DNA of 64,000 bases from Rhodoferax sp. Its GTDB lineage: Bacteria > Pseudomonadota > Gammaproteobacteria > Burkholderiales > Burkholderiaceae_C. Position 1 is the first letter of the stretch. Each line of letters starts with the position of its first letter. Shown here one piece after another: positions 4,336 through 62,447 of this stretch. The position numbers and the translations under genes were made by a program. The notes beneath the pieces are model-generated. The model was not told the origin of the DNA. It saw only the letters and a program-made list of their open reading frames with translations, and did no database searches. Location of the stretch: the NCBI RefSeq assembly GCF_030685025.1, contig NZ_JAUXWC010000105.1. One strand, given 5' to 3'.

Positions 4336-4513
4336 GGGATGCAGGTGGTGGTGAGCAGCGATGGCGCCGCCGGAATCGGCGGAACCGTTGATTTTAGTAG
4401 GCTGGCGACGGCTCGATGGATGATCGTGGCGCGCGCCGCGATCGCATGCCGACGGGGGGCGTCAAATGGACCGCGAAGCGCCCGCTATCATCAGGTCTAA
4501 CTCAAGAGAAGCC

Positions 4514-5083: not shown

Positions 5084-5119
5084 CCGCTGCGACAGCCCAA
5101 GCCGGGCCAGGCGACGCAA

Positions 5120-5992: not shown

Positions 5993-6120
5993 GTGCGTTC
6001 CTTAATTTGTCGGGGACAGCGCTAACGACCTGTCCCGCAAGGTTTCAATCTGGTTGCCGGCCGGGGAGCTTGTCGCTTACCGCCCCGGCGCGTCACGCCA
6101 AGTTTGCGTTCAGGGGTGCA

Positions 6121-8243: not shown

Positions 8244-9117
8244 GGACTAATTCTTCAAGTTGCTTGTCTGCCGCACGCACGGCGGCGACGAATTGATTGA
8301 TTTTTTCGGGGTCCTTGAGGCCCTGGTTGCCTGGACCAGACACCTCGACGCCCGAACTTACATCAACGGCCAGCGATAGACACCGTGGCCGAACCTGGAG
8401 AATGCCGCCAAGCACATTTGCAGCAGTGAGTCCACCACTCAAGACGAGGTGAGCGTTGACGTTTGCTGGAAGAAGTGACCAATTGAAAACCTTGCCTGCG
8501 CCACCATAACCGTCGACATGGGCGTCGAGCAGAATGGCTTGGGCGTTTGAATATTCGTGGACGTATTTTACGAGGTCGAAGCCGCCACCTGCTTCGCCCA
8601 AGGGAATGCGGGCGGCACGCAGATAGGGGCGAGCGCCGCCGCGTGTGGCCTGGAGGCAGTCCTCGGGTGATTCGTCGCCATGGAATTGCACCACTGCGTT
8701 GGGGATCAGTGTGCAGGCATCGATGGTTTGTTGGGCAGGCTGGTTGACCACCAGCAGCACGGGTGTGACAAAGGGTGGCAGGCGCCGGCTAAGTTCGCGG
8801 GCGCGTTCAGGTGTCACGCAACGAAGGCTCCTGGGATACAAGACAAAACCGATGGCGTCCACGCCAGCGGCAACCGCGGCATCGACGTCTTGCTCACGTG
8901 TCAGGCCGCAGATCTTGATGCGGGTACGCGCAAGCGCGGAAAATCCGCCGCTGGGCCGCCCCAAGGCGGATTGCGCCCCCTCGGGGGGCAGCACAGCAGA
9001 CGAAGTCGCAAGCGTGGGGGCAACCAATCCGCCGCTGGGCCGCCCCAAGGCGGATTGCGCCCCCTCGGGGGGCAGCGCAGCAGACGAAGTCGCAAGCGTG
9101 GGGGCATTGTTCATCAT
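8212..9117 (-). CDS. trpF: phosphoribosylanthranilate isomerase; the start is uncertain because of a repeat insertion
   Basis: The core TrpF sequence starts at [13 protein letters not shown]. The longest ORF starts at ATG 9117, in an ATGA overlap with the truA stop, and reads through two 28-aa repeat-encoded units. Alternative in-frame TTG (8964) and GTG starts lie inside the repeat. Confidence 0.85.
8942..9104 (+). repeat. tandem pair (period 84 bp) of a 79-bp REP-like element
   Basis: Unit 1 is 8942-9020 and unit 2 is 9026-9104, and they are near-identical. Shared blocks are GGGCCGCCCCAAGGCGG, GCCCCCTCGGGGGGCAGC and GCAAGCGTGGGGG. The same family occurs at 24873 and 49939. Confidence 0.85.
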
Positions 9118-9896
9118 GGCAAGCCATCATAGCCACACGTCTGCTCTGGCAGGCCCCAGTGCGCGGCATAGCGTGGTCCCAGAAAGTACAGGCCATCCGG
9201 TGAGAAAGTTGGCGCCGCCGCTCTTCGGTCATGCGCCAGCAGCACCTCAGTCATCCACTCTGGCGACTGGCGGCCTTGACCGATGTAGACCAGGCATCCC
9301 ATGATGTTGCGAATCATGTGGTGCAAGAACGCATTGGCTTCAAACTCGAATCGCCAATACGCCCCGCGCCGCGAGATGTTGATATGGTGAAGACTCTTGA
9401 CGGGCGACAGGGCCTGGCAGGCCGAAGCGCGAAATGAGCTGAAGTCGTGCTCACCGATGAGTCGCTTCGCGGCTTGCTGCATGGCGTTGATGTCCAGTGG
9501 CCTGCAAGACCAGCCCACTGTGCCCGCTTCGAAGCTGGGCCGTACGGGTGACTCGAGCAAGGCATAGGCGTAGCGTCGCGACAGGGCACTGGCTCGGCAG
9601 TGGAATTCGGCTGGCACCTGTCTGGCCCACTGCACGGCGATGTCCCGAGGCAGCAGTGCGTTGGGGCCGCGCACCCACGCGTGGGCGGGCCGTTGCACGT
9701 CGGTGTCGAAGTGAATCACTTGCATCACACCATGTACACCGGCGTCGGTGCGGCCACAGCACAGGGTCGAAATTCGCGTCGCGGCGAACTTGCTCAAGGC
9801 AATTTCAAGCTTGTCCTGAACTGTCTGACCGGACGCCTGGCTTTGCCAGCCTTGGTAGGGCTGTCCGTTGTAGCTGACTGCGAGGGCCAACCTCAC
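9114..9896 (-). CDS. truA: tRNA pseudouridine(38-40) synthase
   Basis: 260 aa with a GTG start. Has the TruA pattern (GRTDAGVHG catalytic Asp region). Confidence 0.9.
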   Translation of the reverse strand: MRLALAVSYNGQPYQGWQSQASGQTVQDKLEIALSKFAATRISTLCCGRTDAGVHGVMQVIHFDTDVQRPAHAWVRGPNALLPRDIAVQWARQVPAEFHCRASALSRRYAYALLESPVRPSFEAGTVGWSCRPLDINAMQQAAKRLIGEHDFSSFRASACQALSPVKSLHHINISRRGAYWRFEFEANAFLHHMIRNIMGCLVYIGQGRQSPEWMTEVLLAHDRRAAAPTFSPDGLYFLGPRYAAHWGLPEQTCGYDGLP

Positions 9897-9943
9897 GGCG
9901 AACTCACGCCGCAGTCACGACTGGATCGTGACCGCGATGCCCA

Positions 9944-33659: not shown

Positions 33660-34013
33660 ATGAATCTTTTGCAGACTCTTGAGCAAGAAGAAATTGCTCG
33701 CCTCGGGAAAACCATTCCCGATTTCGCACCCGGCGATACGGTCGTGGTCAGCGTTAACGTCGTTGAAGGTAGCCGCAAACGCGTGCAGGCTTACGAAGGC
33801 GTGGTGATTGCCAAGCGCAATCGCGGCCTCAACAGTGGCTTTATCGTGCGCAAGATCTCCAGCGGTGAAGGCGTGGAGCGCACCTTCCAGACCTACAGCC
33901 CCTTGATCGCCAGCATCGAGGTCAAGCGCCGCGGCGACGTTCGCCGCGCCAAGCTGTACTACCTGCGCCAGCGCAGCGGCAAGTCGGCGCGCATCAAGGA
34001 AAAGCTGGGCTGA
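33660..34013 (+). CDS. rplS: 50S ribosomal protein L19
   Basis: 117 aa, [12 protein letters not shown]...[13 protein letters not shown]...RRAKLYYLR. Confidence 0.95.
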
Positions 34014-38994: not shown

Positions 38995-39054
38995 CGGGGC
39001 GGCGCCGGACGCCGACGTCACGGCAGCGTCACGGCGCATTCGTACACTCACACC

Positions 39055-41154
39055 ATGACCGACGACTCGCGGGCCGAAGCGCCTGACTCCACGGGCGCCG
39101 CCGTGGGCGCCGGCGTGCTGCCCACAACGCTGCCGCTGCTCGACCGCGAGCGCTCGATCCTGCAGTTCAACCGCCGCGTGCTGGCCCAGGCCCGGCGCGC
39201 CGATGTGCCGCTGCTCGAGCGGCTGCGCTACATCACCATCGTCAGCTCCAACCTCGACGAGTTCTTCGAGGTGCGCGTGGCCGACATCATCGAGGCCACG
39301 CGGCAGCCCGGCTCGGGCGTCACCCGCCACGACCTGGCCTCGGTGGCCAGGGCCGCGCACGAGCTCATCGACGAGCAGTACGCCCTCTTCAACGATGCCG
39401 TGATGCCGGCGCTGCAGCACGTGGGCATCGTGGTGCTCAACCACGCCGAGCGCAACGCGGCGCAGCGCAAGTGGGTCCAGCGCTTCTTCGAAACCCAGGT
39501 GCGGCCGCTGCTGGTGCCGGTGAGCCTGGACCCCAGTCACCCGTTTCCTCAGGTGGCCAACAAGTCGCTCAACTTCATCGCCAGGCTGGGCGGGCGCGAC
39601 GCCTTCGGGCGCGACAACCAGATTGCCATCGTCAAGGTGCCGCGCGTGTTGCCGCGCGTGATCCGCCTGCCCGACGAGTTGTGCCCCAGGCAGCAGGGTT
39701 TCGTGTTGCTGACCAGCGTCATGCGCGCCCATCTGGGCGAACTCTTCCCCGGGCGCGAGGTGGTGTCGTTCTCGCAGTTCCGCGTCACGCGCGACTCCGA
39801 TCTCGACGTCGAGGCCGACGACGTCGTCAACCTGCGTCAGGCCATGCGCAGCGGCCTGACGACGCGCAACTTCGGGCTGGCGATCCGGCTCGAAGTCGTC
39901 AGCACCTGCCCGCCCGAGCTGTACAGCTTCCTGCTCGAGCAGTTCTCGCTGCCCGAGGTCGCGCTGTACAAGGTCAACGGGCCGGTCAACCTGGTGCGGC
40001 TGAACCAGCTCATCGACCAGGCCGACGGCGACGCGCTGCACTTCCCGCACTGGGAGCCGCGCTGGCCCGACGCGCAGTTGCCGCGCACACGCTCGATCTT
40101 CGAGCGCCTGCGTGCAGGCGACGTGCTGCTGCACCACCCCTTCGAAAGCTTCGAGCCGGTGGTGCAGTTCCTGCGCGAGGCCGTGCACGACCCCGACGTG
40201 CTGGCCATCAAGCAGACCATCTACCGCACCGGTGCGCAAAGCGAGCTGATGGACCTGCTGATCGAGGCCGCGCGCCGCGGCAAGGAAGTGCTGGCGGTGG
40301 TGGAGCTGAAGGCGCGCTTCGACGAAGAGGCCAACATCAATTGGGCCGAGCGGCTGGAAGCCGTCGGCGCGCAGGTGGTCTATGGCATTGTCGGCCTCAA
40401 GACGCACGGCAAGATGCTGCTCGTGACGCGCCGCGAGAGGGGCCGCCTGCGCCGCTACGCCCACCTGTCCACGGGCAACTACAACCCGCGCACGGCGCGG
40501 CTGTACACCGACATGGGTTGCCTCACTGCCGACCCCGGCCTGACGGCCGATGCCGACGTGCTGTTCCTGCAACTGGCCAGCCAGACGCGCAGCAAGGCGC
40601 CGCGCTACCTGCTGACGGCGCCGTTCATGATGCACCGGCGCATGCTGCGACACATCGGCCAGGTGGCGGTGGCGGCACGGGCCGGGCGGCCGGCGCGCAT
40701 CGTCGCCAAGTTCAATGCGCTGACCGACCCTGGGTTGATGCAGGCCCTGGCCGAGGCCAGCCAGGCCGGCGCCAGCATCGACCTCATCGTGCGCGCCGCC
40801 TGCATGCTGCCGCCGGGCTTGCCGGGGCGCACCGAGAACATCCGCGTGCGCTCGGTGGTCGGGCGTTTTCTCGAGCACACACGCATCCTCTACTTCCGCT
40901 GGGGCGAGGGCGACGACGACGAGGTGCTCTACCTCAGCAGCGCCGACTGGATGAGCCGCAACATGTTCCGCCGCATCGAGGTCGCCTGGCCGGTGCGCGA
41001 CCGCGCGCTGCGCCAGCGCGTCATCGACGAAGGCCTGGTGCCGTATCTGCACGACGAGCGCGACGCCTGGCTGCTGGACAGCGAAGGGCGCTACAGGCGC
41101 GTCGCCGAAACCGGTGTCAGCGCGCAGCAGGCGCTGATGCAGCGCTACTCCTGA
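39055..41154 (+). CDS. ppk: polyphosphate kinase 1
   Basis: 699 aa with the PPK1 pattern (LDRERSILQFNRRVL, NLDEFFEVRV, LKTHGKMLLV autophosphorylated His region). Confidence 0.95.
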   Translation: MTDDSRAEAPDSTGAAVGAGVLPTTLPLLDRERSILQFNRRVLAQARRADVPLLERLRYITIVSSNLDEFFEVRVADIIEATRQPGSGVTRHDLASVARAAHELIDEQYALFNDAVMPALQHVGIVVLNHAERNAAQRKWVQRFFETQVRPLLVPVSLDPSHPFPQVANKSLNFIARLGGRDAFGRDNQIAIVKVPRVLPRVIRLPDELCPRQQGFVLLTSVMRAHLGELFPGREVVSFSQFRVTRDSDLDVEADDVVNLRQAMRSGLTTRNFGLAIRLEVVSTCPPELYSFLLEQFSLPEVALYKVNGPVNLVRLNQLIDQADGDALHFPHWEPRWPDAQLPRTRSIFERLRAGDVLLHHPFESFEPVVQFLREAVHDPDVLAIKQTIYRTGAQSELMDLLIEAARRGKEVLAVVELKARFDEEANINWAERLEAVGAQVVYGIVGLKTHGKMLLVTRRERGRLRRYAHLSTGNYNPRTARLYTDMGCLTADPGLTADADVLFLQLASQTRSKAPRYLLTAPFMMHRRMLRHIGQVAVAARAGRPARIVAKFNALTDPGLMQALAEASQAGASIDLIVRAACMLPPGLPGRTENIRVRSVVGRFLEHTRILYFRWGEGDDDEVLYLSSADWMSRNMFRRIEVAWPVRDRALRQRVIDEGLVPYLHDERDAWLLDSEGRYRRVAETGVSAQQALMQRYS

Positions 41155-41170
41155 CGCGCCGGCGGCAACG

Positions 41171-41632
41171 ATGGACCTCATCCTCTGGCGCCACGCCGAA
41201 GCCCTGGAAATGCGCGAGGTGCAAGACGACCTCGACCGCGCGCTCACCCCCAAGGGCGAGCGCCAGGCGCAGCGCATGGCCGCCTGGCTGAACCGGCAGC
41301 TGCCCGCCAGCACGCGCGTGCTGGTCAGCCCGGCGCGGCGTGCGCAGCAGACGGCGGCGGCGCTGGACCGCAAGTTCAAGACCGTGCCGGCACTGGCGCC
41401 CGACGCCGATGTGGCTGCCCTGCTGCACACCGTGCGCTGGCCCGACGCCCGCGAGCCGGTGCTGGTGGTCGGCCACCAGCCGACGCTGGGCCTGGCCGCG
41501 GCTTACCTGCTGTCGGGCCAGCCGCAGGCCTGGGCCGTGCGCAAGGGCGGCGTGTGGTGGCTGCGCGGGCGTGAACGCGAGGGCGCGCTGCAGGTCGTCC
41601 TTCACGCCGTGGTGGGACCGGAATTCCTGTAG
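41171..41632 (+). CDS. sixA: SixA-type phosphohistidine phosphatase (histidine phosphatase superfamily)
   Basis: 153 aa. LILWRHAEA is the RHG-type catalytic motif. Confidence 0.8.
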   Translation: MDLILWRHAEALEMREVQDDLDRALTPKGERQAQRMAAWLNRQLPASTRVLVSPARRAQQTAAALDRKFKTVPALAPDADVAALLHTVRWPDAREPVLVVGHQPTLGLAAAYLLSGQPQAWAVRKGGVWWLRGREREGALQVVLHAVVGPEFL

Positions 41633-41648
41633 CGAAGCCCGGCGGCCC

Positions 41649-43154
41649 CTAGACCTCCGCCAGCACCAGCCGCAGTGACCCGTTACGCGCCCAGGCGGCG
41701 GTCTCTTCCTGCAGCAGGAACAGCGTGCGCGGATTGGCTTCGGCCCAGGTGCTGCTGTGGCTCAGCACGGCGTCGCGGCCGCGGGCACGCAAGGTCAGCG
41801 CCTTGGGGTCGGCCAAGCCGCGTGCATGGCACTTGATCACCGCCAGTCGCAGGCACAGCACCTGCCAGGCGAAGGCGGTGCTGGACAGCTGGGCCTCGAT
41901 CTTGCGCAGCCCGCCGCGCTGGCCCAGCACCAGGTCGCCGATGCGGCGCTGCTGGCTCTGCGAAAAACCCGCCGCGTCGACGTTGGCCAGCAGGTAGGCG
42001 CTGTGGCGGTGGTGGTCGTGGTGCGACACCATCAGGCCCAGCTCGTGCAGCGCGCAGGCCCAGGCCAGCTCGCGCCGCGGTTCGGGGTCGGTGTCGGGCA
42101 TCGCGGTGTCGAACAGTGCCAGCGCCACCGCGGACACGCGCGCGGCCTGCGCGGTGTCGACGTCGAAGCGCTGCTGAAGGTCGGCCACCGAGGCGTCGCG
42201 CATGTCTCCGGGCAACTGGCGCTGCAGCGCCAGCAGGCGTTCGTGGAGGTCGATGATGACACCCTGGCGCAGGGCGCCCTTGGCCGGCCAGAGGGCGCGG
42301 ATGTCGAAGTGTGCCGACAGCGTGTACAGGATGGCCAGCCCGCCCGGCAGCACGGCACGGCGTTCGGGTTTCAGCCCGGGCAATTCGATGCGGTCGACGT
42401 GTCCCGCCTCCAGGCAGCGCGCGATGCACCAGCGCAGCCCCGCCGGCGTGATGCGGCCGTCGGTCACGCCCGAGGCCTGCAGCAGTTGCGACACCGCACC
42501 CGCGGTGCCCGACGAGCCCAGCGCCTGCCCCCAGTGGTCGGGGGCGAAGGACTGCAGGCCTTCCTCGAATTCGGCGCCGGCAGCCACCTGCGCGGCGCGG
42601 AAGCCGTCGCGCGTGATGCGGCCGTCCTCGAAGTAGCGCATCGACAGGCTGACGCAGCCGACGTGAAAGGACTCCGCCACGGTCGGCGTGCGGCCCTGGC
42701 CCAGGATCAGCTCGGTGGATCTGCCGCCGATGTCGACCACCAGCCGCGGCTCGCTGCCGGGCTGCATGTGCGCCACGCCGGCGTAGATAAGCCGTGCCTC
42801 CTCGCGGCCGGAGATGACCTCGATCGGGTAGCCCAGCGCCTCCTGGGCGCGCAGCAGGAAGGCGTTGCGGTTGCGCGCCTCGCGCAGTGTCTGCGTCGCC
42901 ACGGCGCGCACCTGGGCCGGCTGGAAGCCGGCCAGGCGGGCGGCAAACCGCCGCAGGCAGGCCAGGCCGCGCTCGGCCGCTTCTTCGGTGAGCATGCCGT
43001 GGGCGTCGAGCCCGGCGCCCAGGCGCACGGTGTCCTTGAGGTAGTCGATGCGCCTGTAGCGGCTCTGCGGCAGCTGCCCGATTTCGAGCCGGAAGCTGTT
43101 CGAGCCCATGTCGATGGCCGCCAGCGGGCTGCCCGGGTTCAGGCGTATTTCCAT
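41649..43154 (-). CDS. ppx: exopolyphosphatase (Ppx/GppA family)
   Basis: ATG at 43154 (MEIRLNPGSPLAAIDMGSNSFRLEI). ASKHA-fold N-terminus and an HD-like C-terminus. Confidence 0.9.
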   Translation of the reverse strand: MEIRLNPGSPLAAIDMGSNSFRLEIGQLPQSRYRRIDYLKDTVRLGAGLDAHGMLTEEAAERGLACLRRFAARLAGFQPAQVRAVATQTLREARNRNAFLLRAQEALGYPIEVISGREEARLIYAGVAHMQPGSEPRLVVDIGGRSTELILGQGRTPTVAESFHVGCVSLSMRYFEDGRITRDGFRAAQVAAGAEFEEGLQSFAPDHWGQALGSSGTAGAVSQLLQASGVTDGRITPAGLRWCIARCLEAGHVDRIELPGLKPERRAVLPGGLAILYTLSAHFDIRALWPAKGALRQGVIIDLHERLLALQRQLPGDMRDASVADLQQRFDVDTAQAARVSAVALALFDTAMPDTDPEPRRELAWACALHELGLMVSHHDHHRHSAYLLANVDAAGFSQSQQRRIGDLVLGQRGGLRKIEAQLSSTAFAWQVLCLRLAVIKCHARGLADPKALTLRARGRDAVLSHSSTWAEANPRTLFLLQEETAAWARNGSLRLVLAEV

Positions 43155-43219
43155 ACACGGATCGTACCCGGCGCGCCTGCTCCAGAATGGCAGGCTTGCC
43201 ACCTCAGAAGGAGAGACCC

Positions 43220-44098
43220 GTGCTCAAGGAAGACTTCGACACCCTGGTGCCGGCCGCCGGCGGCGTCAACCGGCGCACCTTCGTGCGCGGCACGCTCGGC
43301 AGCGGCTTTGCTGCTGCGGTGCTGCCGGTGATGGCGCAGACGGCGGTCAAGACCGACACCTCCGGGCTGCTGAGCGGCGAGGTCACGATCCCCGTCGGTG
43401 ACTTCAGGATGCCGGCCTACCGTGCCGCGCCTGCCGGCCGCACCGGGCTGCCGGTGGTGCTGGTGATCAGCGAGATCTTCGGCGTGCACGAGTACATCGC
43501 CGATGTCGCGCGGCGCTTCGCCAAGGCCGGCTATTTCGCCGTTGCCCCCGAACTGTTCGTGCGCCAGGGCGACGCGCAGTCCTACGGTGAAATCGGAAAA
43601 CTCATCGCCGAGGTCATTTCCAAGGTGCCCGACGAACAGGTCATGGCCGATCTCGACGCCACCGTCGCCTGGGCCAGGGCGCAGGGCGCCGACACGGCCA
43701 GGACCGGCATCACCGGTCTTTGCTGGGGCGGCCGCATCACCTGGCTGTACACGGCGCACAACCCGCAGGTCAAGGCTGGCGTGGCCTGGTACGGGCGCCT
43801 GGTGGGCAATGCGACCCCGCTCACGCCCAGGCACCCGGTCGACGTGGCCGGCGTGCTGCATGGCCCGGTGCTGGGCCTGTACGGCGAGAAGGACACCGGC
43901 ATCCCGCTCGACACCGTCGACCGGATGAAGGCGGCGCTGGCAGCCGGCAACGCGGCGGCGAAGAAGAGCGAGTTCGTCATCTACCCGGACGCACCGCACG
44001 CCTTCCACGCCGACTACCGGCCCAGCTTTCGCAAGGAGGCCGCCGAGGACGGCTGGCGGCGTTGCCTGGAATGGTTCAAGGCGCAGGGCCTGGGCTGA
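43220..44098 (+). CDS. dienelactone hydrolase family protein, Tat-exported
   Basis: GTG at 43220 after AAGGAGAG. Twin-arginine signal NRRTFVRGTLGSGFAAAVLPVMA and the DLH nucleophile region GITGLCWGG. Confidence 0.8.
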   Translation: MLKEDFDTLVPAAGGVNRRTFVRGTLGSGFAAAVLPVMAQTAVKTDTSGLLSGEVTIPVGDFRMPAYRAAPAGRTGLPVVLVISEIFGVHEYIADVARRFAKAGYFAVAPELFVRQGDAQSYGEIGKLIAEVISKVPDEQVMADLDATVAWARAQGADTARTGITGLCWGGRITWLYTAHNPQVKAGVAWYGRLVGNATPLTPRHPVDVAGVLHGPVLGLYGEKDTGIPLDTVDRMKAALAAGNAAAKKSEFVIYPDAPHAFHADYRPSFRKEAAEDGWRRCLEWFKAQGLG

Positions 44099-52793: not shown

Positions 52794-52811
52794 CGCCCGG
52801 GCGGAGGGCGA

Positions 52812-53269
52812 TCAGCGGTCGCCGCCGCCGGTGGCGGGGCTGCCACCGCCACCGCTGACTACGGCTACGTCCGCGACTTGGCCGCGGTGCCAGACCTCCA
52901 CGACGTCACCGTCGGCACGGCGGAGGTCGATCTCCTCGATGGCGGTGCCGTCATCGCCAAACCAGCCGGTGGCGACGACGAGGTCGGCCAGGGCTGGTGC
53001 GCCGGGCCGTACGACCTGGTCATCCGCCCAGCCGTTGCAGCAGCGCGTTGGCGAGACCCTGGGCGTCGTTGCGTTGCCAGCCGATGCGCGCGCTGCGCCG
53101 AAACGCCGATGCTGCATCGTCCCCGCGCCGCATGCAGATGAATACGCGCCTGATGCCAGGCGATCTGCATCCGGCCGACCCAATTACCGTCCTGCCGCGC
53201 CGCCCGCTCGCAGTTGTCGTCGAAGACGGTGATGGCCTCGGTATCGCGGCCCAGCCAGGCCCAGGCCAC
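52812..53269 (-). pseudogene. uncharacterised small gene interrupted by two +1 frameshifts (or sequencing errors)
   Basis: Protein-like composition and G/C-ending codons jump between frames. Frame 1 runs from GTG 53269 (VAWAWLGRDTEAITVFDDNCERAARQDGNWVGRMQIAWHQARIHLHAAR). Frame 2 reads DDAASAFRRSARIGWQRNDAQGLANALLQRLG. Frame 3 reads DDQVVRPGAPALADLVVATGWFGDDGTAIEEIDLRRADGDVVEVWHRG... up to the stop at 52812. Confidence 0.35.
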
Positions 53270-53310
53270 CGCCGACGCAGCGGTGCGACCGTGGCGAGAC
53301 GGTGACAGTG

Positions 53311-53787
53311 TCAGCGGCTGGCGGGTCGTTCAGCGCCCGCGCTGGTCGCGTTGATCGTGATGCCGCGCTTGCGCAATTCGTCGACCAGGAGCTTGGCATT
53401 CGGGTTGCCGGCATCGGCCATGCGCTGGGTGTCGGCGGCCAGTGCGTCGAGCGACGCGCGCAGCTTGCCGGCGTTATCGACGGTCTGCTGCAGCGACGCA
53501 TGCGCGGCCAGCAGGGCCGCGCGCTCGCCGATCAGCTGTTGTGTCTGAAAGCCGAGCCAGCCCAGCACGGCCACTGCACCCAACAGTACCGGGACGAACG
53601 GGCTGCGTACCGACGCCGCTGTTGCCGCCGGCGACGAGCGCGAATTAGATCGCGAACCGCGGCTGCGCTCGGGCAGCGCCGGCGGCGCCAGGGTGTCGGC
53701 GCCATCGGTCGCACCGACATCGTGACCGACGTCGTGTGCGGCGCTGTCCTGGGCGGGGGTGGCAGGTAAATTGACGACGTTTCTCAT
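53311..53787 (-). CDS. uncharacterised single-pass membrane protein X2 (158 aa)
   Basis: ATG at 53787 after AAGGA. About 60-aa Ser/Arg/Ala-rich N-tail, TM segment FVPVLLGAVAVLGWLGF, then a helical C-domain ending KLLVDELRKRGITINATS. It is a paralogue of X1. Confidence 0.6.
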   Translation of the reverse strand: MRNVVNLPATPAQDSAAHDVGHDVGATDGADTLAPPALPERSRGSRSNSRSSPAATAASVRSPFVPVLLGAVAVLGWLGFQTQQLIGERAALLAAHASLQQTVDNAGKLRASLDALAADTQRMADAGNPNAKLLVDELRKRGITINATSAGAERPASR

Positions 53788-53803: not shown

Positions 53804-54109
53804 TCACTTGCGCTGCGGCGTTGCCGGGGCGGCCGGCGCCGCGGGGGCGTTGACGCTGTATGTGATGCCATGTCGCTGCAGAAGAGCCTTGACGTCACCG
53901 TCGTTGTTGCGCGCGCCCAACTCGGCCAGCGCCCGGATGATCTCGCGGTACAGGCCTTCGAGCTGCACCGACTGCTGCACATACTGCTGGCGTTGGGTGA
54001 CGTCGGCGCGTGCCGATCCGTTGCTGTGGCCCAGCGCGACATTGGCGGCCATCGCCGCCAGGCAGGCCGTGGCAAGCACGGTCGCGATCCAGTATTGGAG
54101 ACTGGTCAT
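53804..54109 (-). CDS. uncharacterised single-pass membrane protein X1 (101 aa)
   Basis: ATG at 54109 after GGAGAA, 22 nt after the stop of the giant gene. N-terminal TM segment YWIATVLATACLAAMAANVAL, helical domain ending VKALLQRHGITYSVNA, then a Pro/Ala tail. Confidence 0.6.
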   Translation of the reverse strand: MTSLQYWIATVLATACLAAMAANVALGHSNGSARADVTQRQQYVQQSVQLEGLYREIIRALAELGARNNDGDVKALLQRHGITYSVNAPAAPAAPATPQRK

Positions 54110-54131: not shown

Positions 54132-57100
54132 TCAATGCACCTTGGCGCGCCGGCGCCGGGCCACGAACGCGGCCGCTGCGGCCAGCACCAGCAGGTGAAT
54201 CGTGCCTGGTTCCGGCACCGTGCCGCCGCTCTGGTCGATCACGTTGGCGCTGATCACCAGGCGCCGGCTCAGCGCGCGGCCACTGGGGTCGGCGGCGTTG
54301 GTGCTGACGTACTTGAAGTCGATCACGCCCTCGAAAAGGCCTACGGTCGAGGCCAGGAAGCCGATGTCGAGGTTGCCGGTGGCCTGCCCCGCCGCGAGCC
54401 CGGTCACCTCGCCCCAGCCGGTGCAGCTGAAGTCGTCGGCGTTGGTCAGCAGGTCGAACAGGCCGCTCAGGTCGTCGGCGGGCCCGGCGACATCGTTGTC
54501 CAGCCGCAGCGACGTCAAGATGCTGTTGCCGAGCACGATGTTGCCGAGGTTGAGGAGGTAGTTGCTGCCCGATTGCGTGAGCAGGCCCAGCCCGGCGAGG
54601 ATGTCGAAGTCGGCGTTGGCCAGGTTGTTGATCTGGGCCTTGACCTGCACGCTGCCGTTGGCGCCGGCCGAGATGTCGGCCAGGTCCGGGTTCTGGCTCA
54701 GGAAAGCCACCGAGCCGGCCTGGTTGTAGACGCCGGCGCTGGCCGTGTTGAGACCGACGGCGATGGCGGCGCCGGCCTGCGCTCCGATGCCGCCGGCGCT
54801 GCCGCCGCCGGTGAACGGGCCGCTGACGCCGCTCAGGTTGGCGCGCAGCGTGTCGTTCAGCGCCGTCACGGCCGCGGTGTTGTTGACCACGATGTTCCGT
54901 GCGCTGACGGTGTCGCCGACGCGAACGACGCCGAAGTCCAGCGTCGTCGTCGCCAGCTGGCCGATGGCCTGGGTGTAGACCTTGCCGCTGACGCTGACCT
55001 GCTGGCTGGCCAGCGTGAGCTGGCAGTTCGGCGCGCAGTTGCCGACGTTGTCGGCATCGGAGACGAAGGCGAGGGTGGCACTGCCGGCGTTGCCGCCGGT
55101 GAAGTTGCCCGCGCCTGCGGTGGCCAGGCCGACCTGCAGCGCACTGCTGTTGGTGCCGCCGGGCGCCAGCAGGTTGAAACTGCCGCCGGCGGTGACGGGC
55201 GCACCGTTGCTGCTGATGCTGGCATTGAGCGCGGCCTGCGGCGCCGCGGTGGCGACGTTGGTGACGCTCACAATGGCCGTTGGCGACGCGTCGCCCACAC
55301 GCGCGGCGCCGAGGTGGATCGACGGGTTGTTGATCAGCGGGCTGGCCTGGTTGATGACGTTGGCCTGCGCCTGGATGGTGCCGGCCACGCCGTAGGCCTC
55401 GCTGCCGGCCGATGCGGTGCCCAGGTCGTTGCTGACGCCGTTCACAGCGCCCGCGGTGAAGTAGTTGACCGCGATGCTGCCGTTGACGACATTGGCGGCC
55501 GTGGTGTTGACACTGACCGTCATCGACCCATTGCCGGCGTTGCTGTTGGTGCCGGCAAGGATGCCGTTCAAGGCGCCAATACCGCTGATAAGGCCGGCGC
55601 CGACGCCGGTTGTCGTGCCGAAGCTGGCGTTCAGGTCCTCGACGAAGCCGGCCACGCCGGCGGCGGTGTTGGCGATGACCATGTTCTGCGTCACCACCTG
55701 CCCGACCTGCACGGTGCCGAAGTTCAGCGCCGTGGACAGGATCGCGCCGGTGGCGGCCTGGTAGACGTTGCCGTTGACGCTGATGGTGTGGCTGCCGGCG
55801 CCGCTGACACCCAGGCCGTTGCTGACACCGTTGACCGTGCCCGTGCTCTGGTAGTTCAAGGTCACGCTGCCGGTCTTGGCCCCGCCGCTGGCCGTGTTCA
55901 CGCCGACCTTCATCGCTGCCGCGTTGCTGGCGCCGGCCAGCAGGGCGTTGACAGCGCCGCCGTTGTTGGTTGCCGCGCCGGTGTTGGCGCCGAAGCCAGC
56001 GTTCAAGTCCTCGCTGAAGGCGCCTGCCGCCGCGGTGTTGGCCACCGTCAGCGACGCCAGGTTGCTGCCGCCGACGCGCTGGTTGGGCACCTGAATCGGC
56101 GACGACGAATGACCTGCGGCGATGTTAAACGCCGCACCCTGAATGTGTAGGGTCTGATTCTGTATGTTGTCGAAATTGCTCTTAATGTGCACGGCTTGAC
56201 CAGTCAATGCACCCGCGCTCGCGGCGTTGAATGTGACGACCTGATCGACGCTATTGCTGCCGGTTGCGATTGGATTGAAGTTGCCTGCTGTCACGCCCAA
56301 GCCTGACAAGCGGGAATCGGTGATGCTGCCGCCGTTGGCGGCGGTTTGAATCGCGCCGCGCAGTACGGGGCCGGTGGTGCCGGTGTTGGCGATCTGATAA
56401 TTCTGACTAACGTTGTCACCCACGCGAACATTGCCGAAGCTCAGCACGGGGCTAGCCGTGGTACCGCCGGTTACCGCACCGGTGATGGCTTGGCTAACAT
56501 CGCCCGCCGCTAGGATTAATCCGCCACCAGTGACATTGGCACGGCGATTGAAGCTGTTGCCGGTGCCAAAGTTAGCGTTGTCGTAATCGGCCGAAACGGT
56601 GATGTTGTACATACCCAGGTTAAGCGCGTTGGCGCTCGACCCATTATTGAGCAGGATGCCCGCCGCGCTGTTCGCGCCCAGAGTCAACACCCCGGTGCCG
56701 CTGGTGCTAGCCGTACCGGTACCGGTAAAGCCTGTGTTCGCATTGACATTGCCGCCGTTGGCGCGAATCGTGCCGCCGTTGGCAATCGCTATATTCAAGG
56801 CCAGCGTGCCGCCGCCCGTACCTTCCAGAACCCCGCTATTCGTGAGACCGCTGCCGACGACCGTGCCGCTGCCGCCGAGGGTGCCGCCGAGGGTGCCGCC
56901 GGCAGCCACCGTGACGGTCGGGCTGGTCAACTGGCCGTTGACGCGCAAGACGCCGCTGGTGACCGCGGTGCTGGTATTGAACGTACCGGTGCCGGTCAGC
57001 GTCCAGTCCGCGCCCTGCATAGAGAGCGTTTCGAAGGCGAGAAACTTCGCGATCGATTCCGTGCCGGTGCCCTGCAACACCAGATTGTCGGTGCCGGTGC

Positions 57101-58088
57101 CGCCCTGCACATTGCCGGTCAGCGCCGAGCCGGTCAGCAGATTGAGCGTGTGGGCCGAGGCGCCGGAGAATGCGATCGAGCGCCCGGTGCCGGTCGAGCC
57201 GATGGTGCCGCTGTTGTTGACCGCTGCAGGATTTGCGCCCGCCACGAACATGCCGTCGTTGCCGGACTGAATTGTGCCTGTATTCGTGAAGATGCCGCCG
57301 CCTCGAGCCTCGACAGCGGGGCCGCGCACCGACGTGATCGAGCCGTTGTTCGTGAAGGTTAGAAGAGCGGATGCGCTGGCATAAATGCCGTTATAGCCGC
57401 CGGTGATGATGCCGGTGCTGTTGTTGGTCAGCGTCGCGGCGCCGCCCTGGACCAGCACGCCGGTCGAGTAGCCGGTCGTCTTGTCGGCGTGGATTTCACC
57501 GCTGTTGACGACGGTTCGGGAAGCCCCTTGGCCGACCGAAACGGCGTTATTGCCGCCGGTCGTCGAGATCGTTCCCCCTAGATAATTGGTGACCGTGCCG
57601 CCGTTCTTGAGTGTCACGCCCTCGACGTTTGCGGTGATCGTTCCAAAATTGTCGACGCTGCCGGCGCCGCCGGCATTGAAAGTGCTGAGCACGATGCCGC
57701 TTAAGCCCGCATTGATCTGCGCACCGGCGGAATTGGTCACCGCGCCGCCCTGCGTGAATGAAATCGAATTGCCCCCTGTGACGATCCCCTGGTTGGTAAG
57801 GGTCCAGACCTGAGTCGTGGCGCTGATGCCGGTGCCGTTGAAGATGACCGTGTTGTCGACGGTCACGCCGGGGAATACGCGCGCCGTCGATCCAATAAAT
57901 GTGTCGAGATTGACGCCGGTGTTCGTGCTCGTGGTGATGTCGACATCTTCGGCGTGCGCTGTTCCGTGCAGGCCGACGACCCCTGCCGCGATGAAGGACA
58001 CAGAGGCCAACAACGATTTGCGCAACGTGCGTCGCGAACCGCGTGGCCGCGAGCAAATCACGACACCGCCATTCAGTAGCTTTTGCAT
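54132..58088 (-). CDS. giant secreted beta-helix / Ig-like-repeat protein with C-terminal PEP-CTERM sorting domain (1318 aa)
   Basis: AGGAGAG RBS, ATG at 58088, signal peptide ending HGTAHA. The N-terminal Gly/Thr/Asn-rich repeats are typical of autotransporter-like beta-helices. Six modules of the type L.FG.V.VG.......V.NT follow. The C-terminus is VPEPGTIHLLVLAAAAAFVARRRR (PEP motif, TM segment, Arg cluster). Confidence 0.85.
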   Translation of the reverse strand: MQKLLNGGVVICSRPRGSRRTLRKSLLASVSFIAAGVVGLHGTAHAEDVDITTSTNTGVNLDTFIGSTARVFPGVTVDNTVIFNGTGISATTQVWTLTNQGIVTGGNSISFTQGGAVTNSAGAQINAGLSGIVLSTFNAGGAGSVDNFGTITANVEGVTLKNGGTVTNYLGGTISTTGGNNAVSVGQGASRTVVNSGEIHADKTTGYSTGVLVQGGAATLTNNSTGIITGGYNGIYASASALLTFTNNGSITSVRGPAVEARGGGIFTNTGTIQSGNDGMFVAGANPAAVNNSGTIGSTGTGRSIAFSGASAHTLNLLTGSALTGNVQGGTGTDNLVLQGTGTESIAKFLAFETLSMQGADWTLTGTGTFNTSTAVTSGVLRVNGQLTSPTVTVAAGGTLGGTLGGSGTVVGSGLTNSGVLEGTGGGTLALNIAIANGGTIRANGGNVNANTGFTGTGTASTSGTGVLTLGANSAAGILLNNGSSANALNLGMYNITVSADYDNANFGTGNSFNRRANVTGGGLILAAGDVSQAITGAVTGGTTASPVLSFGNVRVGDNVSQNYQIANTGTTGPVLRGAIQTAANGGSITDSRLSGLGVTAGNFNPIATGSNSVDQVVTFNAASAGALTGQAVHIKSNFDNIQNQTLHIQGAAFNIAAGHSSSPIQVPNQRVGGSNLASLTVANTAAAGAFSEDLNAGFGANTGAATNNGGAVNALLAGASNAAAMKVGVNTASGGAKTGSVTLNYQSTGTVNGVSNGLGVSGAGSHTISVNGNVYQAATGAILSTALNFGTVQVGQVVTQNMVIANTAAGVAGFVEDLNASFGTTTGVGAGLISGIGALNGILAGTNSNAGNGSMTVSVNTTAANVVNGSIAVNYFTAGAVNGVSNDLGTASAGSEAYGVAGTIQAQANVINQASPLINNPSIHLGAARVGDASPTAIVSVTNVATAAPQAALNASISSNGAPVTAGGSFNLLAPGGTNSSALQVGLATAGAGNFTGGNAGSATLAFVSDADNVGNCAPNCQLTLASQQVSVSGKVYTQAIGQLATTTLDFGVVRVGDTVSARNIVVNNTAAVTALNDTLRANLSGVSGPFTGGGSAGGIGAQAGAAIAVGLNTASAGVYNQAGSVAFLSQNPDLADISAGANGSVQVKAQINNLANADFDILAGLGLLTQSGSNYLLNLGNIVLGNSILTSLRLDNDVAGPADDLSGLFDLLTNADDFSCTGWGEVTGLAAGQATGNLDIGFLASTVGLFEGVIDFKYVSTNAADPSGRALSRRLVISANVIDQSGGTVPEPGTIHLLVLAAAAAFVARRRRAKVH

Positions 58089-58105: not shown

Positions 58106-58384
58106 TTACGCGCGGGGGGCTGGCTGATTAACGCCGAAAGTGCTCACCGCCGTCGGGCCCTGAGTCGAAGTGACGGTCGAGGTTTGCCCGCCACCGATGG
58201 TCGCGGTATCGGCAGCGTCGGGCACGAAGCCGCACGACCCATTGGCCGCCACGTTGCAGTGGCCGCTGGCCGGGTTCCATGTGCAGGCGGCCGCCAGCGC
58301 GTACTGGGTGGGCGCGGCGCCGACGACGAGCAGGGCGGCCAGGGCCAGCGCGGTCTCGCTGATGGGCTCGCGGTTCGTTGCCAT
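58106..58384 (-). CDS. small secreted Cys-containing protein (92 aa), hypothetical
   Basis: GGGAG RBS and ATG at 58384. Signal peptide MATNREPISETALALAALLVVGAAPTQYALA. The mature part is ACTWNPASGHCNVAANGSCGFVPDAADTATIGGG.... The stop lies 17 nt before the giant gene. Confidence 0.55.
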   Translation of the reverse strand: MATNREPISETALALAALLVVGAAPTQYALAAACTWNPASGHCNVAANGSCGFVPDAADTATIGGGQTSTVTSTQGPTAVSTFGVNQPAPRA

Positions 58385-58447: not shown

Positions 58448-58462
58448 GCAGCGAGTGCGCCA
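58448..58462 (-). promoter_or_regulatory. candidate sigma-54 (-24/-12) promoter
   Basis: The minus strand reads TGGCGCACTCGCTGC. GG and GC have the exact TGGCAC-N5-TTGC spacing. It lies about 60 nt upstream of the small secreted-protein ATG. A chance match is possible in GC-rich DNA. Confidence 0.25.
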
Positions 58463-58803: not shown

Positions 58804-60114
58804 TCAGCAGCCCACGACCTTGAATTCGACGCGCCGGTCCAGCGCATCGGAGAGATCGTCGCGGCCGGTGCCGATCAGCGTCTGCCTGGAGCCCATGCCG
58901 CTGGCGATCATTCGCGGCGCCAGCGGCGGCGCCCGGCGGGCGAGTTCGTTTCGCACTGCCTCGGCACGCAGCAGCGACAAGCGCTCGTTCAGTGGTTCGG
59001 GCCCGCTGGCACTGGCGTGGCCCACCACCTCCAGGCAACTCTGGCGCGCCGATGCGTGCTTGGCGATCTCGCCGAACCACAGCGGGTAGGCCACCGGCCC
59101 GCTCCTGGCGTCTGACCACATGGCGGCCGTGCCGGGCCTGAAGAGGAACTTCATCCCCAGGCGCTTGTTCTCCAGCCCCTGGTCGACGATCTGCCCGAAG
59201 GCGTCTGCCGCCGCCGTGCGGTTGCCCAGCCGCCAGTTGGTGAGATACAGCCCGGTGTAGGTGCGCAGCTGTTCGCCGCCGGGGCTGCTGCGCGCGGCCT
59301 GGTAGAGCTGGCGTGCCTCGGTGTACCTGCCGGCGTCGTAGGCGTCGTTGGCCTCGGCGAGGGTGGCCGAGGTGAGCACGCGGTCGATGTAGGCGGGGTG
59401 GATCGCATCACCGGCGCGCGTGCCCTGGCAGGTGCGGATGTAGCCCTGGGTCGTCGTGTCCTCCAGCCAGGCCGGCGCGTCGCGGTAATAGGGCAGCGGC
59501 GTGGCGTCCACGCCCTCGGCTTCGGCGAACGCCAGCCCCTTGCTGACGAGCTTGCCGGTCTTCAGGTCGGCCAGTGCCAGGCAGATGCGGTAGGCCACGC
59601 GCTTGCCTTCGGTCTTGCGTTCGGTGTTGACACCGGTGAACGTGCCCACCAGCAGCAAGGGCCCGCGCATCAGGCTGCCGCTGTTGAACGGTTGCACGGC
59701 ATAACGCGGGAAACTCTCTTTGATGATGCGCGTGATGCGCGTGCCCATGGCGCGCGTGGCCTGCGTCTGCGCCCCGGTCACGCCGTCGATCAGGGGATCG
59801 ATGACGAGATCCCACTCGGTGTCTGGGGGCAGCTGGGCCTTGCCCAGCAGATTGTTGGCCGCCGCCTGCACTGCCTCGTCGAAGGGCAGGATCGGCGGTG
59901 GTGCTGCTGGGGCAGGTGCGGGTGCGGGTGGTGGTGGCGCTGCCGCGGCCACGGGTTCGGGTGGCGCCGCCGGCGCCGGCGCCGTGCCCGCGCTGGTCGT
60001 CACGGCAGCGGGCGGCCCGCTGGTCGCCGGCGACGTGCACCCCGCCAGCACGAGCACGCAGGCAAGACACGCCAAGAGTCCAGCGCTCGGAGCGCCCTTG
60101 GACGGCTGTTTCAT
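58804..60114 (-). CDS. OmpA-domain lipoprotein with Pro/Ala linker and an LpoB/FlgO-like plus TPR-like middle region
   Basis: 436 aa. Lipobox LVLAGC. The OmpA_C pattern is VVGHASASGPEPLNERLSLLRAEAVRNEL...DRRVEFKV. Confidence 0.8.
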   Translation of the reverse strand: MKQPSKGAPSAGLLACLACVLVLAGCTSPATSGPPAAVTTSAGTAPAPAAPPEPVAAAAPPPPAPAPAPAAPPPILPFDEAVQAAANNLLGKAQLPPDTEWDLVIDPLIDGVTGAQTQATRAMGTRITRIIKESFPRYAVQPFNSGSLMRGPLLLVGTFTGVNTERKTEGKRVAYRICLALADLKTGKLVSKGLAFAEAEGVDATPLPYYRDAPAWLEDTTTQGYIRTCQGTRAGDAIHPAYIDRVLTSATLAEANDAYDAGRYTEARQLYQAARSSPGGEQLRTYTGLYLTNWRLGNRTAAADAFGQIVDQGLENKRLGMKFLFRPGTAAMWSDARSGPVAYPLWFGEIAKHASARQSCLEVVGHASASGPEPLNERLSLLRAEAVRNELARRAPPLAPRMIASGMGSRQTLIGTGRDDLSDALDRRVEFKVVGC

Positions 60115-60202
60115 CGTCGCTCCCCGGTCGGCAAAGGCAGGGCGTGCAGTATGCCTGTACCTGCCGAGGGCGGGAGGTGGCGTTTGCCCGTGGCGCCGGG
60201 CC

Positions 60203-61738
60203 TCAGCGCGCGCAGCGGGTATGGAAATAGGTCGTCTGCTCGGGCGTCAACAGGTCGCCCAGTTGCATGCGCAGGAGCAGGTCGTTGCAGCGCGGGTCGG
60301 TTGGGGCCGCCCGCGTGCCGGGGTTCGTGGCGGGCGCGGTGCGCGCGGGCGGCGGCCGCGTGGGCGCCTCCAAGGTCGGCGCGGCTGCCTGTGGCGGTAC
60401 GGTCGCTGCGGGCGGGCGCCGCTGCGGGATGCTGGCCGGGCCCGCAACGGCAGCAGGTGCAGCGCCACTTGCCGCCGTGGCCAAGGACGGCGTACCGGCT
60501 GCCGCAGGCGTCTGGGGTGCCGCGGTCTTCGGCGCCGACGCCGCCGGGGCCACCGACGGTGCTGCCGGGCCGGCAAGCGGCCCCGGCCGCGCCACCAACA
60601 GCCAGACTACCGCTGCGGCGGCGCCGGCGGCCGCGAGACCGCCTGTCCATACCGCCGTCGCCTTTACCCGTGCCCGTGGCGGCATGGTCGTTGACGACGT
60701 CGCGGAGGCGGCGGGTGCAACGGCCGTGGGCACGGCGGGCGATGCGCCTGCTGGCGCGGTCGGCAGCGGCGGCGGTGCAACGGTCGCACCGGGCGTGGAG
60801 GGCGGCAAAGTGCCCGACGCTGCCGGCGGCGGCTGCAGTGGCACCACCACCGTGCTGTCGAGGTCGAGGTCCAGCGCGGCGCCGGTTGCAGCGGGTTGCG
60901 CGGCCTTCAACACGCACCGCAGATCGGCGGCGAAGACGGCAGCGGTTTCATACCGATCCTCAGGCTGCTTTGCCAGCGCCCGCGAGACGATGGCATCGAA
61001 GCCGGCCGGCAGTGCCGGATTCAGCTGCGACGGCGGGACCGGCTCGTCGTGCACGATCTTGCGCTGGATGCCGAAGGGACCGCCACCGACGAAGGGGCGC
61101 GTGCCGGTGAGGAATTGATACAGCACGACTCCGGCGCCGAAGATGTCGGCGCGCGAGCCCACGGCCAGGCCCAGGATCTGCTCGGGCGCCATGTAACTGG
61201 GCGTGCCCACCATGGTGCCCGGCAGCGTGCGGTCCTGGTTGGAGTCGGCCAGCCGCGCGACGCCGAAGTCGGTCAGCTTGACGCGGCCAGCGCTGTCGAT
61301 CATCACGTTGGCCGGTTTCACGTCGCGGTGCACGACGCCGTGTTCGTGCGCATAGGCCAGCGCGTCGAGCAGCTCGCTCATGATGCGCACGGCCTCTTCG
61401 AGGCCGAACTTCTCGCCGTCTGCAAAGGCCTGCCCGAGTTCGCGCCCGCGCACGAACTCCATGACGATGAAGGTCACGTCGTCCTGGGCGCCAAAGTCGA
61501 AGACGGCGACGATGTGGGGGTGGTTCAGGCGCGCCGCGGCCTGCGCCTCGCGCTCGAAGCGGGCCGTGTAATCGGCCGAGGTGGACTCGTCGGCGAGAAA
61601 GCTCCGCAGCACGGTCTTGATGGCCACCGTGCGCGACAGCCGCATGTCGGTGGCCTCATAGACCACGCCCATGGCGCCTCGCCCGAGGACCTTGCCCAGC
61701 TTGTAGCGGCCCAGCAGAGTCTGCGGATCGGTGTTCAT
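60203..61738 (-). CDS. Hanks-type serine/threonine protein kinase, single-pass membrane
   Basis: ATG at 61738. Motifs are LGRGAMGVVY, VAIK, HRDVKPANVMI, DFG and SYMAPE. A TM segment (GGLAAAGAAAAVVWLLVA) and a Pro/Ala-rich outer tail ending in a two-Cys motif follow. Confidence 0.9.
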   Translation of the reverse strand: MNTDPQTLLGRYKLGKVLGRGAMGVVYEATDMRLSRTVAIKTVLRSFLADESTSADYTARFEREAQAAARLNHPHIVAVFDFGAQDDVTFIVMEFVRGRELGQAFADGEKFGLEEAVRIMSELLDALAYAHEHGVVHRDVKPANVMIDSAGRVKLTDFGVARLADSNQDRTLPGTMVGTPSYMAPEQILGLAVGSRADIFGAGVVLYQFLTGTRPFVGGGPFGIQRKIVHDEPVPPSQLNPALPAGFDAIVSRALAKQPEDRYETAAVFAADLRCVLKAAQPAATGAALDLDLDSTVVVPLQPPPAASGTLPPSTPGATVAPPPLPTAPAGASPAVPTAVAPAASATSSTTMPPRARVKATAVWTGGLAAAGAAAAVVWLLVARPGPLAGPAAPSVAPAASAPKTAAPQTPAAAGTPSLATAASGAAPAAVAGPASIPQRRPPAATVPPQAAAPTLEAPTRPPPARTAPATNPGTRAAPTDPRCNDLLLRMQLGDLLTPEQTTYFHTRCAR

Positions 61739-61952
61739 TGGCGGCGTGCGGTGGCCGCAGCGTCGTGCGGCAGCAAGGCGGTGCGAAGCAGTATAGGGGC
61801 GGCAACAGCCGGCCCGGCGCCGCTGCACGAAACCCTGCAACGCCTGTTGCGCAGACAGGCGCGCCGAACGACCACCGGCTGCGCCCTGCAGCAAGCACCC
61901 TCTGGCCGACCACGGCGGGCCCGGCGCCAGGCTGGCGCCACACCGGCAGCCG

Positions 61953-62447
61953 TCAGAATTCGATCGTGTCGGCGATGGCCTTGAGGCCCGCCTTGGCGCA
62001 GGCGTCGTCGGCCTCGCCGCCGGGCGCGCCGGAAACGCCGATGCCGCCGTAGATCGAGCCTCCGCCCTCGATGACCACGCCCCCGCCCACGGCCAGCATG
62101 CGCGGCGTGCTGCGGATGCCGCTCATCGGCCGGCCGGGCTGCGATTCGGCGGCCAGTTCGAGCGTGGAGGTGCGGAAGCTGGCCGCCGTCCAGGCCTTGT
62201 TGGTGGCCACGTCCACCGTGTGCGCACCGGCAAAGCGGTCGCGCAGGAAGACCTGCGTCAGGCCGGAACGGTCGACCACGGCCACGCCGACCTGGTAGCC
62301 GTGCGCACGGCACGACGCCATTGCGGCCTGCGCCGCGGCGAGCGCGGTTTCGGGCGTGAGGGTCTTGATCTGGAAGGTGGCAGCCTGGCTCTGCGCCAGG
62401 GCGGGCAGGGCCAGGCACAAGCCAGCAGCGATGAGTGCGTGTCGCAT
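61953..62447 (-). CDS. GlcG/HbpS-like (DUF336) heme-binding family protein, secreted
   Basis: ATG at 62447 after AGGAGA. Signal peptide MRHALIAAGLCLALPALA, and the GGGVVIEGGGSIYGGIGVSGAPGGEADDAC signature. Confidence 0.8.
   Translation of the reverse strand: MRHALIAAGLCLALPALAQSQAATFQIKTLTPETALAAAQAAMASCRAHGYQVGVAVVDRSGLTQVFLRDRFAGAHTVDVATNKAWTAASFRTSTLELAAESQPGRPMSGIRSTPRMLAVGGGVVIEGGGSIYGGIGVSGAPGGEADDACAKAGLKAIADTIEF

Follow-up and report, generated by a model that had tools for sequence, protein, structure and literature searches.

Proteins that bear the PEP-CTERM sorting signal are encoded by dispersed genes, a median of eight per genome, mostly in single-gene operons, and the exosortase gene epsH sits in exopolysaccharide (EPS) loci (Haft et al. 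2006, PMC1569441). In Aquincola, a relative of the bacteria considered here, PEP-CTERM proteins take part in floc formation (PMC9850573). The gene analysed here encodes a giant protein of this class (P0001, 1318 aa; hereafter the giant) and lies at 54132–58088 of a 64,000-nucleotide stretch (the window) of contig NZ_JAUXWC010000105.1, from the Rhodoferax sp. assembly GCF_030685025.1; it, its parts, the two small genes and the upstream ORF and sigma-54-like element described below are on the minus strand. We find that the giant joins a head homologous to the passenger of classical autotransporters to a stalk of immunoglobulin-like (Ig-like) modules and a PEP-CTERM tail, that the same fusion occurs on an independent contig, and that two genes for small membrane proteins, smallA and smallB, accompany giants of this family in related loci. 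The giant's open reading frame (ORF) is a single uninterrupted frame of 1318 codons whose GC content at third codon positions (0.85) is usual for coding sequence in this DNA, and an AGGAGA ribosome-binding site stands 7 nt 5′ of its ATG.

A search with residues 1–430 returned ~200 proteins, and nearly all of the best 120 carry the PF03797 autotransporter barrel, many of them from Hyphomicrobiales. In one of these, P0003 (920 aa), the barrel occupies residues 647–900 (190 bits); residues 12–429 of the giant, signal peptide included, are 71% identical to it, and there the similarity stops, the match ending at a short common motif, GT(V/I)(V/I)G..TN.G. Past this junction the autotransporters run into GNSIGTL..., an autochaperone region and the barrel, whereas P0001 runs into the base of the PEP-CTERM family's own solenoid, marked by DYDNANFGTGNSFNRRANVTG, and then into the Ig stalk. 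Because no PF03797 barrel is matched in P0001 at E up to 1, the giant is not an autotransporter, despite its passenger-homologous head. Our literature search found no publication combining PEP-CTERM with an autotransporter passenger.

By inspection and alignment, the protein begins with a signal peptide (residues 1–46, 57951–58088) that has a basic RRTLRK segment, a hydrophobic core and an AHA|ED site, and that is homologous to autotransporter signal peptides. The autotransporter-type passenger head follows (residues 47–429, 56802–57950) and then the native base of the PEP-CTERM family's beta-solenoid, conserved among relatives (residues 430–544, 56457–56801). An AlphaFold2 model of residues 1–700 (pLDDT 90.1, pTM 0.83) gives the head a pLDDT above 95 and residues 1–44 one below 50; in it an unbroken run of short strands extends from residue 49 to ~500, across the junction, before module 1 of the stalk begins. 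The earlier note on this DNA, made from sequence alone, had described a head of about 450 aa rich in Gly, Thr and Asn, and had called it a beta-helix. The two repeats it quoted are present (GGAVTNSAGAQINAG at residues 114–128 and GGTVTNYLGGTISTTGG at 163–179), as is the head itself, with its extent corrected to residues ~47–544, or ~500 aa; the beta-helix call agrees with the solenoid strand pattern and the passenger homology, but the autotransporter origin of the head, the mosaic nature of the gene and the probable chimeric join of the contig at rplS (see below) had been overlooked.

Could the hybrid be a product of assembly? An independent Joint Genome Institute (JGI) metagenome contig, L093, encodes a protein (P0002) with the same head, junction, Ig stalk and PEP-CTERM tail, with two small genes 3′ of it. 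Homology between the window and L093 starts at 58103, right after the stop codon of a short upstream ORF (the stub, described below), and DNA identity then varies along the gene: 73–82% in the signal peptide, 93–97% over residues 45–450, which include the junction, 69–90% over residues 450–575, and 70% or less beyond ~residue 580. The head has a dN/dS (ratio of nonsynonymous to synonymous substitution rates) of 0.33. In protein identity, Rubrivivax-type relatives overtake L093 at ~residues 650–670, where GC returns from ~0.61 to 0.69; the tract common to the window and L093 (56100–58103) stands out as a low-GC segment (0.61) within 0.69 flanks. In a third protein, P0093 (contig L094), a portion of this head precedes a longer solenoid and then the stalk seen here; an IS1595 element truncates the gene at its 5′ end.

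An assembly artefact, in which the autotransporter gene of a 62% GC organism was joined to the PEP-CTERM gene of a 70% GC organism, would fit two features of this contig, namely its change of origin inside rplS (see below) and the GC of the tract from 58103 to ~56100, which is that of the bin's main organism. We nevertheless hold it to be very unlikely: L093 has the same junction, with 92–97% DNA identity across it, P0093 likewise joins part of the head to the same stalk, the boundary at 58103 falls between genes, in sequence that is not homologous and so offers a k-mer graph no crossing point, and the bin contains no second copy of the head. We conclude from these alignments that the fusion is real and was made once. 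The tract of high DNA identity, the switch of closest relative at ~650–670, the GC shift and the P0093 variant together lead us to read the giant gene as a nested mosaic, in which a head cassette that already included the fusion junction was recombined into a Rubrivivax-type locus.

Other members of the family also show rearranged heads or repeats. On L094 (4918–6000) the IS1595-family transposase abuts a giant gene in which only the latter half of the autotransporter-type head is present. L093 has a tandem pair of giant PEP-CTERM genes (2–1471 and 1557–5061), their tails near-identical and their heads different, which suggests duplication or gene conversion together with head diversification. 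In the metagenome-assembled genome (MAG) of Ca. Rhodoferax randersensis (G002, locus L039, ~4058–11069), the coding sequence of a giant, ~2340 aa altogether, is broken between two overlapping frames; the break falls in a near-perfect tandem repeat of the solenoid region, and may be a frameshift or an assembly slip.

The upstream boundary of the mosaic adjoins the stub, a 92-aa ORF (58106–58381) that consists of a signal peptide followed by CTWNPASG... and whose stop codon lies 17 nt 5′ of the giant's ATG. In relatives, the giant ORFs themselves begin with a stub-type signal peptide and CTWNP, 3.1–3.4 kb upstream of the equivalent of residue 419, and the same N-terminus is found in Ideonella and another MAG; homology to these N-termini ends at the stub's stop codon. 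By this homology we identify the 92-aa ORF as the displaced native N-terminus of the giant family and not as a partner of the giant. It is scarcely credible that stub and giant are instead one gene split by a sequencing frameshift, with the giant's signal peptide then internal. The close spacing, the overlap of the two open frames at 58106–58127 and the stub homologue's place at the start of giants in relatives would all suit such a split, but the giant is served by an AGGAGA site and an ATG of its own, residues 1–46 can be aligned with autotransporter N-termini, on L093 the gene starts likewise, preceded not by a stub but by the end of another giant gene, and the homology to relatives' N-termini breaks off at a stop codon.

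In the 415-nt spacer upstream of the stub, a looser pattern scan picked out a sigma-54-like −24/−12 element, TGGCGC-N5-CTGC (58448–58462), which starts 81 nt before the stub's ATG. Proteobacterial PEP-CTERM genes have been described as preceded by a TTTACA-type motif and a sigma-54 −24/−12 element at a spacing of 71 ± 38 nt, within which the present spacing falls (Haft et al. 2006, PMC1569441). Across the genome the pattern has a frequency of 0.17 per kb, and three of the nine other PEP-CTERM genes in the bin have it at −54 to −86; a scan for the sigma-54 consensus with up to two mismatches found no excess over chance and no site upstream of the giant gene. With low confidence, we propose from sequence that the element could be the native promoter, from which stub and new gene would now be transcribed. 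Farther upstream, on the same strand as the giant, the window encodes an OmpA-domain lipoprotein (436 aa) and a Hanks-type Ser/Thr kinase (58804–62122). Both were considered as partners and rejected: among the 79 relatives' loci, tblastn found no homologue of the lipoprotein, and homologues of the kinase in four distant loci only.

The modules that begin at residue 547 already have a name. NCBIfam model NF012200 (choice-of-anchor D) matches the giant in six separate stretches; its cut-off is 45 bits, and it gives 127 bits when run on the entire protein and 163 bits on just the tail. It is also matched by all 46 aligned relatives. With NF012200 and AlphaFold2 we delimited six modules: module 1, residues 547–662 (56103–56450); module 2, 663–785 (55734–56102); module 3, 786–921 (55326–55733); module 4, 922–1047 (54948–55325); module 5, 1048–1176 (54561–54947); and module 6, 1177–1282 (54243–54560). 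The model of residues 430–1318, computed with the 46 aligned relatives as input, has a pLDDT of 89.4 and shows an all-beta chain of modules ending in a C-terminal helix. Foldseek placed it closest, among PDB entries, to ASH/HYDIN-type Ig arrays of ciliary central-apparatus proteins (E ~1e-28), with further matches to titin and cadherins, and the Pfam families ASH, Cep192_D4 and HYDIN match the giant weakly, below cut-off, in keeping with these structural hits; a sequence search of the PDB gave nothing at E ≤ 0.01. Since the six NF012200 matches, the predicted structure, the Foldseek results and the sub-threshold Pfam matches agree, we assign the modules to the Ig-like choice-of-anchor D family. 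The Ig-like repeats proposed in the earlier note are thereby borne out by the structure prediction it had called for, and its six conserved opening strands were found at residues 549, 665, 788, 924, 1050 and 1179. Some stalk relatives in the 46-sequence alignment end in PEPxxWA-CTERM or VPLPA-CTERM signals, and one gives a weak MYXO-CTERM match, which fits the family's name.

The DNA that carries the giant differs in origin from the rest of the contig. At ~33.9 kb, inside rplS (33660–34013, plus strand), GC rises from 0.61 to 0.70, and it stays high to the contig end. The first 60 nt of rplS are 98–100% identical to two same-genus genomes and 62% to Rubrivivax MAGs, and over its last 90 nt identity is 98% with a Rubrivivax MAG and 87% with a same-genus genome; the crossover from bin-type to Rubrivivax-type sequence falls in a stretch that is near-identical across both lineages. 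The high-GC half also duplicates blocks held elsewhere in the bin, ispA-dxs on contig C61 and flhDC on C122. The dxs on C61 is genus-typical: its identity to same-genus genomes is 94%, compared with 77% for the dxs in the window, which reaches 83% with Rubrivivax MAGs. The same half of the window holds, at 38995–43223, polyphosphate kinase (ppk), a histidine phosphatase and the exopolyphosphatase Ppx together.

These observations make a chimeric metagenome contig, joined at rplS, the likeliest reading of the sequence. Under the alternative, which we rate as rather unlikely, the high-GC half would be a genuine large horizontal acquisition by the bin organism, and the exosortase encoded in the bin (on C133, see below) would then be the cognate enzyme. 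It draws on the 5 kb past rplS, where gene order is syntenic with same-genus genomes and which no other bin contig carries, and on the same-genus genome G002, which has a homologous cassette of giant, smallA and smallB. Against an acquisition stand the duplication of housekeeping blocks that the bin already holds in genus-typical form (dxs, 94% for C61 versus 77% for the window), the second flhDC on C122, the location of the crossover in a near-identical stretch of rplS, a classic site for a chimeric join, and the continuation of the segment to the contig end. Whether by chimera or by natural transfer, the giant gene belongs, by its sequence affinities, to Rubrivivax-like DNA. Because the contig appears to be chimeric, the giant's genome is probably not the bin, and more generally a whole-genome test can mislead if a metagenome contig is chimeric.

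The C-terminus of the giant is a PEP-CTERM signal (54135–54218). It reads VPEPGT (at residue 1291), IHLLVLAAAAAFVA, RRRR, AKVH and stop, the middle segment being hydrophobic, assigned as a transmembrane helix and modelled as a helix, and it exceeds the curated cut-offs of both PF07589 (24.0 bits versus 20.7) and TIGR02595 (19 bits versus 16); the same site scores 31.1 bits in the genome scan. All parts of the signal that the earlier note listed are present, and the profile thresholds on which it had staked the motif are passed. Ten PEP-CTERM sites above cut-off, spread over eight contigs, were counted in the 5.68-Mb bin (G000, 338 contigs). Its sole match to TIGR02602 lies on contig C133, in an XrtA (TIGR03109, 343.5 bits versus 208) fused to an EpsI domain and flanked by a TIGR03087 PEP-CTERM-system glycosyltransferase and a nucleotide-sugar dehydrogenase. 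The ~30 window genes scanned are all housekeeping or unrelated, with no exosortase or polysaccharide gene among them, and since the bin's only TIGR02602 match is on C133 the window has no exosortase, as the earlier note had stated. However, the genome-wide search that the note proposed has a complication: the giant sits in DNA foreign to the bin and Rubrivivax-like, so it would be unsafe to assume that XrtA of the bin is the enzyme that acts on it.

Relatives offer a second view of where the exosortase lies. When species-representative genomes were scanned with a pattern, relatives of the giant turned up at 79 loci, and no XrtA homologue occurs within 8 kb in any of them (0/79). Of five relatives' genomes, four do encode an exosortase (249 bits or more), megabases away from the giant gene, for example at 2.16 Mb versus 3.66 Mb in a single-contig 6.7-Mb Rubrivivax MAG, and at 1.60 Mb versus 0.40 Mb in Accumulibacter. 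Because the window has no exosortase, sorting must act in trans, as first suggested, and the remote exosortases of the relatives agree with this. What does not stand is the notion that an "orphan" giant is remarkable: this state is normal for its family and matches the original description of the PEP-CTERM system. It is quite improbable that the tail is a relic, in a host that lacks an exosortase and in which the C-terminal helix would keep the protein fixed in the inner membrane. Such a reading could appeal to the bin's only exosortase being on a 62% GC contig while the giant lies in foreign 70% GC DNA, and to one relative MAG in which no exosortase was found, but the giant's C-terminus passes both curated thresholds, the tail is conserved in the family, with TIGR02595 matched by 31 of the 46 relatives and variant PEP-CTERM models by others, and the exosortases in four of the five genomes include that of the single-contig Rubrivivax MAG.

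Downstream of the giant lie two genes for single-pass membrane proteins, smallA (53804–54109; 101 aa) and smallB (53311–53787; 158 aa), with starts 22 nt past the stop codon of the giant and 16 nt past that of smallA, respectively. Each product has one transmembrane helix followed by a ~60-aa helical domain ending ...LL..L...GI(T/S)...N, and SmallB has in addition a variable Ser/Arg-rich N-terminal tail; from these sequences the two look like paralogs, and because basic residues precede the helix both should face the periplasm. Neither has a Pfam or NCBIfam match better than E 0.04, and the 450 clusters of smallA homologues are all called hypothetical, none with a Pfam domain. In profile searches of the 1.8 kb that follow each relative, 28 of 66 informative loci had the pair and none had one gene without the other, and two more loci have the pair upstream of the giant; loci that lack it are those of more distant relatives (Caldimonas, Verrucomicrobia, Planctomycetes and others). 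Searching outward from smallA recovered the order giant, smallA, smallB in both independent contexts examined. The earlier note had proposed the neighbouring small proteins as partners of the giant, which holds up for the two conserved downstream genes and not for the upstream 92-aa ORF, a cut-off native N-terminus. Between folE2 and smallB, the stretch 52794–53310 has no clean ORF and no conserved counterpart beside smallB in relatives.

Taken together, we think it likely, though well short of certain, that the giant is a large surface or matrix adhesin, sorted by XrtA, with a mosaic head and the small pair as accessory factors, from a Rubrivivax-like betaproteobacterial host. This proposal builds on the domain architecture, family memberships, autotransporter homology, mosaic boundaries, small-pair conservation and remote exosortase genes of relatives established above; for Sec export, retention by the C-terminal helix, XrtA cleavage in trans, delivery to surface or matrix and the adhesive role it follows the published PEP-CTERM model (PMC1569441; PMC9850573). 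The signal peptide would carry the giant through the inner membrane by the Sec pathway, and the PEP-CTERM helix would retain it there until an XrtA-type exosortase, encoded elsewhere in the genome, cuts at VPEP and releases it toward the surface and the exopolysaccharide matrix, where the six choice-of-anchor D modules would form a stalk presenting the beta-solenoid head. As for the gene's history, head, ribosome-binding site and signal peptide would derive from a classical type Va autotransporter passenger; in the donor, the PEP-CTERM family's stalk would have replaced autochaperone, linker and barrel, and recombination would then have moved the head cassette into the present locus, leaving the native N-terminus as the 92-aa stub behind the native promoter. 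SmallA and SmallB, co-transcribed downstream, may be dedicated inner-membrane accessory factors that handle or dock the giant in the periplasm; such handling is a guess.

Several points weigh against this proposal. We only infer the cleavage, location and adhesion of the giant; the rplS junction and both mosaic junctions are read from assembled sequence; and the presence of an exosortase in the host is extrapolated from relatives, with no exosortase found in one of the five relatives' genomes (a MAG). With the model of residues 1–700, Foldseek matched the first Ig module only, leaving the solenoid without a significant PDB match, so that "beta-helix" rests on strand pattern and passenger homology, and we claim no structural likeness of the head to a named passenger. 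Upstream, the sigma-54-like element has three mismatches to consensus and its pattern recurs in 3 of 13 relatives, and the TTTACA enhancer motif does not occur there in exact form.

How, then, does this locus compare with described systems? Among the closest are the PepA-type PEP-CTERM substrates of the XrtA–EpsH system (Aquincola tertiaricarbonis, Zoogloea; PMC1569441, PMC9850573), whose genes likewise lie far from the exosortase of the EPS locus, follow a large intergenic region, perhaps with a sigma-54-like element in common, and belong to floc-forming Burkholderiales. Unlike PepA-type proteins, the giant is far larger and has a head from another secretion system, and unlike the single-gene operons typical of PEP-CTERM proteins, its gene is not alone, because two small membrane-protein genes follow it. 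The choice-of-anchor D giants of Rubrivivax, Ideonella, Accumulibacter and Scleromatobacter (L014–L032, L095, L096) are its closest relatives in stalk and tail (55–66% identical) and share the conserved motifs, the downstream smallA/smallB pair and the PEP-CTERM tail. Judging by public records, Ideonella sp. A 288 (L095) and Scleromatobacter humisilvae BS-T2-15 (L029) are candidate culturable carriers. The giants of these genera start with a signal peptide, CTWNP and a native solenoid of ~1100 aa, whereas in the present locus this N-terminus has become a separate 92-aa stub and a 383-aa autotransporter passenger serves as the head. For the head, the counterparts are classical type Va autotransporters of Hyphomicrobiales (P0003; P0009, Hyphomicrobium sp.), in which signal peptide and passenger are 65–71% identical over ~420 residues; unlike them, the giant lacks autochaperone, linker and PF03797 barrel, has an Ig-like stalk and PEP-CTERM tail instead, and cannot translocate itself.

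To our knowledge, it has not been established how PEP-CTERM proteins reach the cell surface once they leave the inner membrane. The same passenger, ~70% identical, occurs on a barrel or on an exosortase tail, and is therefore a natural matched pair for comparing what each route requires; smallA and smallB supply two concrete candidate accessory genes. It is conceivable, if doubtful, that the passenger is a mobile head cassette able to function with two unrelated display chassis, the type Va barrel and the exosortase-sorted Ig stalk; were this so, the PEP-CTERM route would have its own way of moving a folded or foldable beta-solenoid across the outer membrane, and SmallA and SmallB would be previously unrecognised dedicated components for giant substrates. 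Because the giant family is common in floc-forming wastewater bacteria (Rubrivivax, Accumulibacter, Ideonella, Caldimonas), its members may contribute to floc or biofilm matrices. Set beside these systems, what is new in the giant is an autotransporter-derived head on a PEP-CTERM protein, together with the conserved small pair; the remainder is a known kind of protein.

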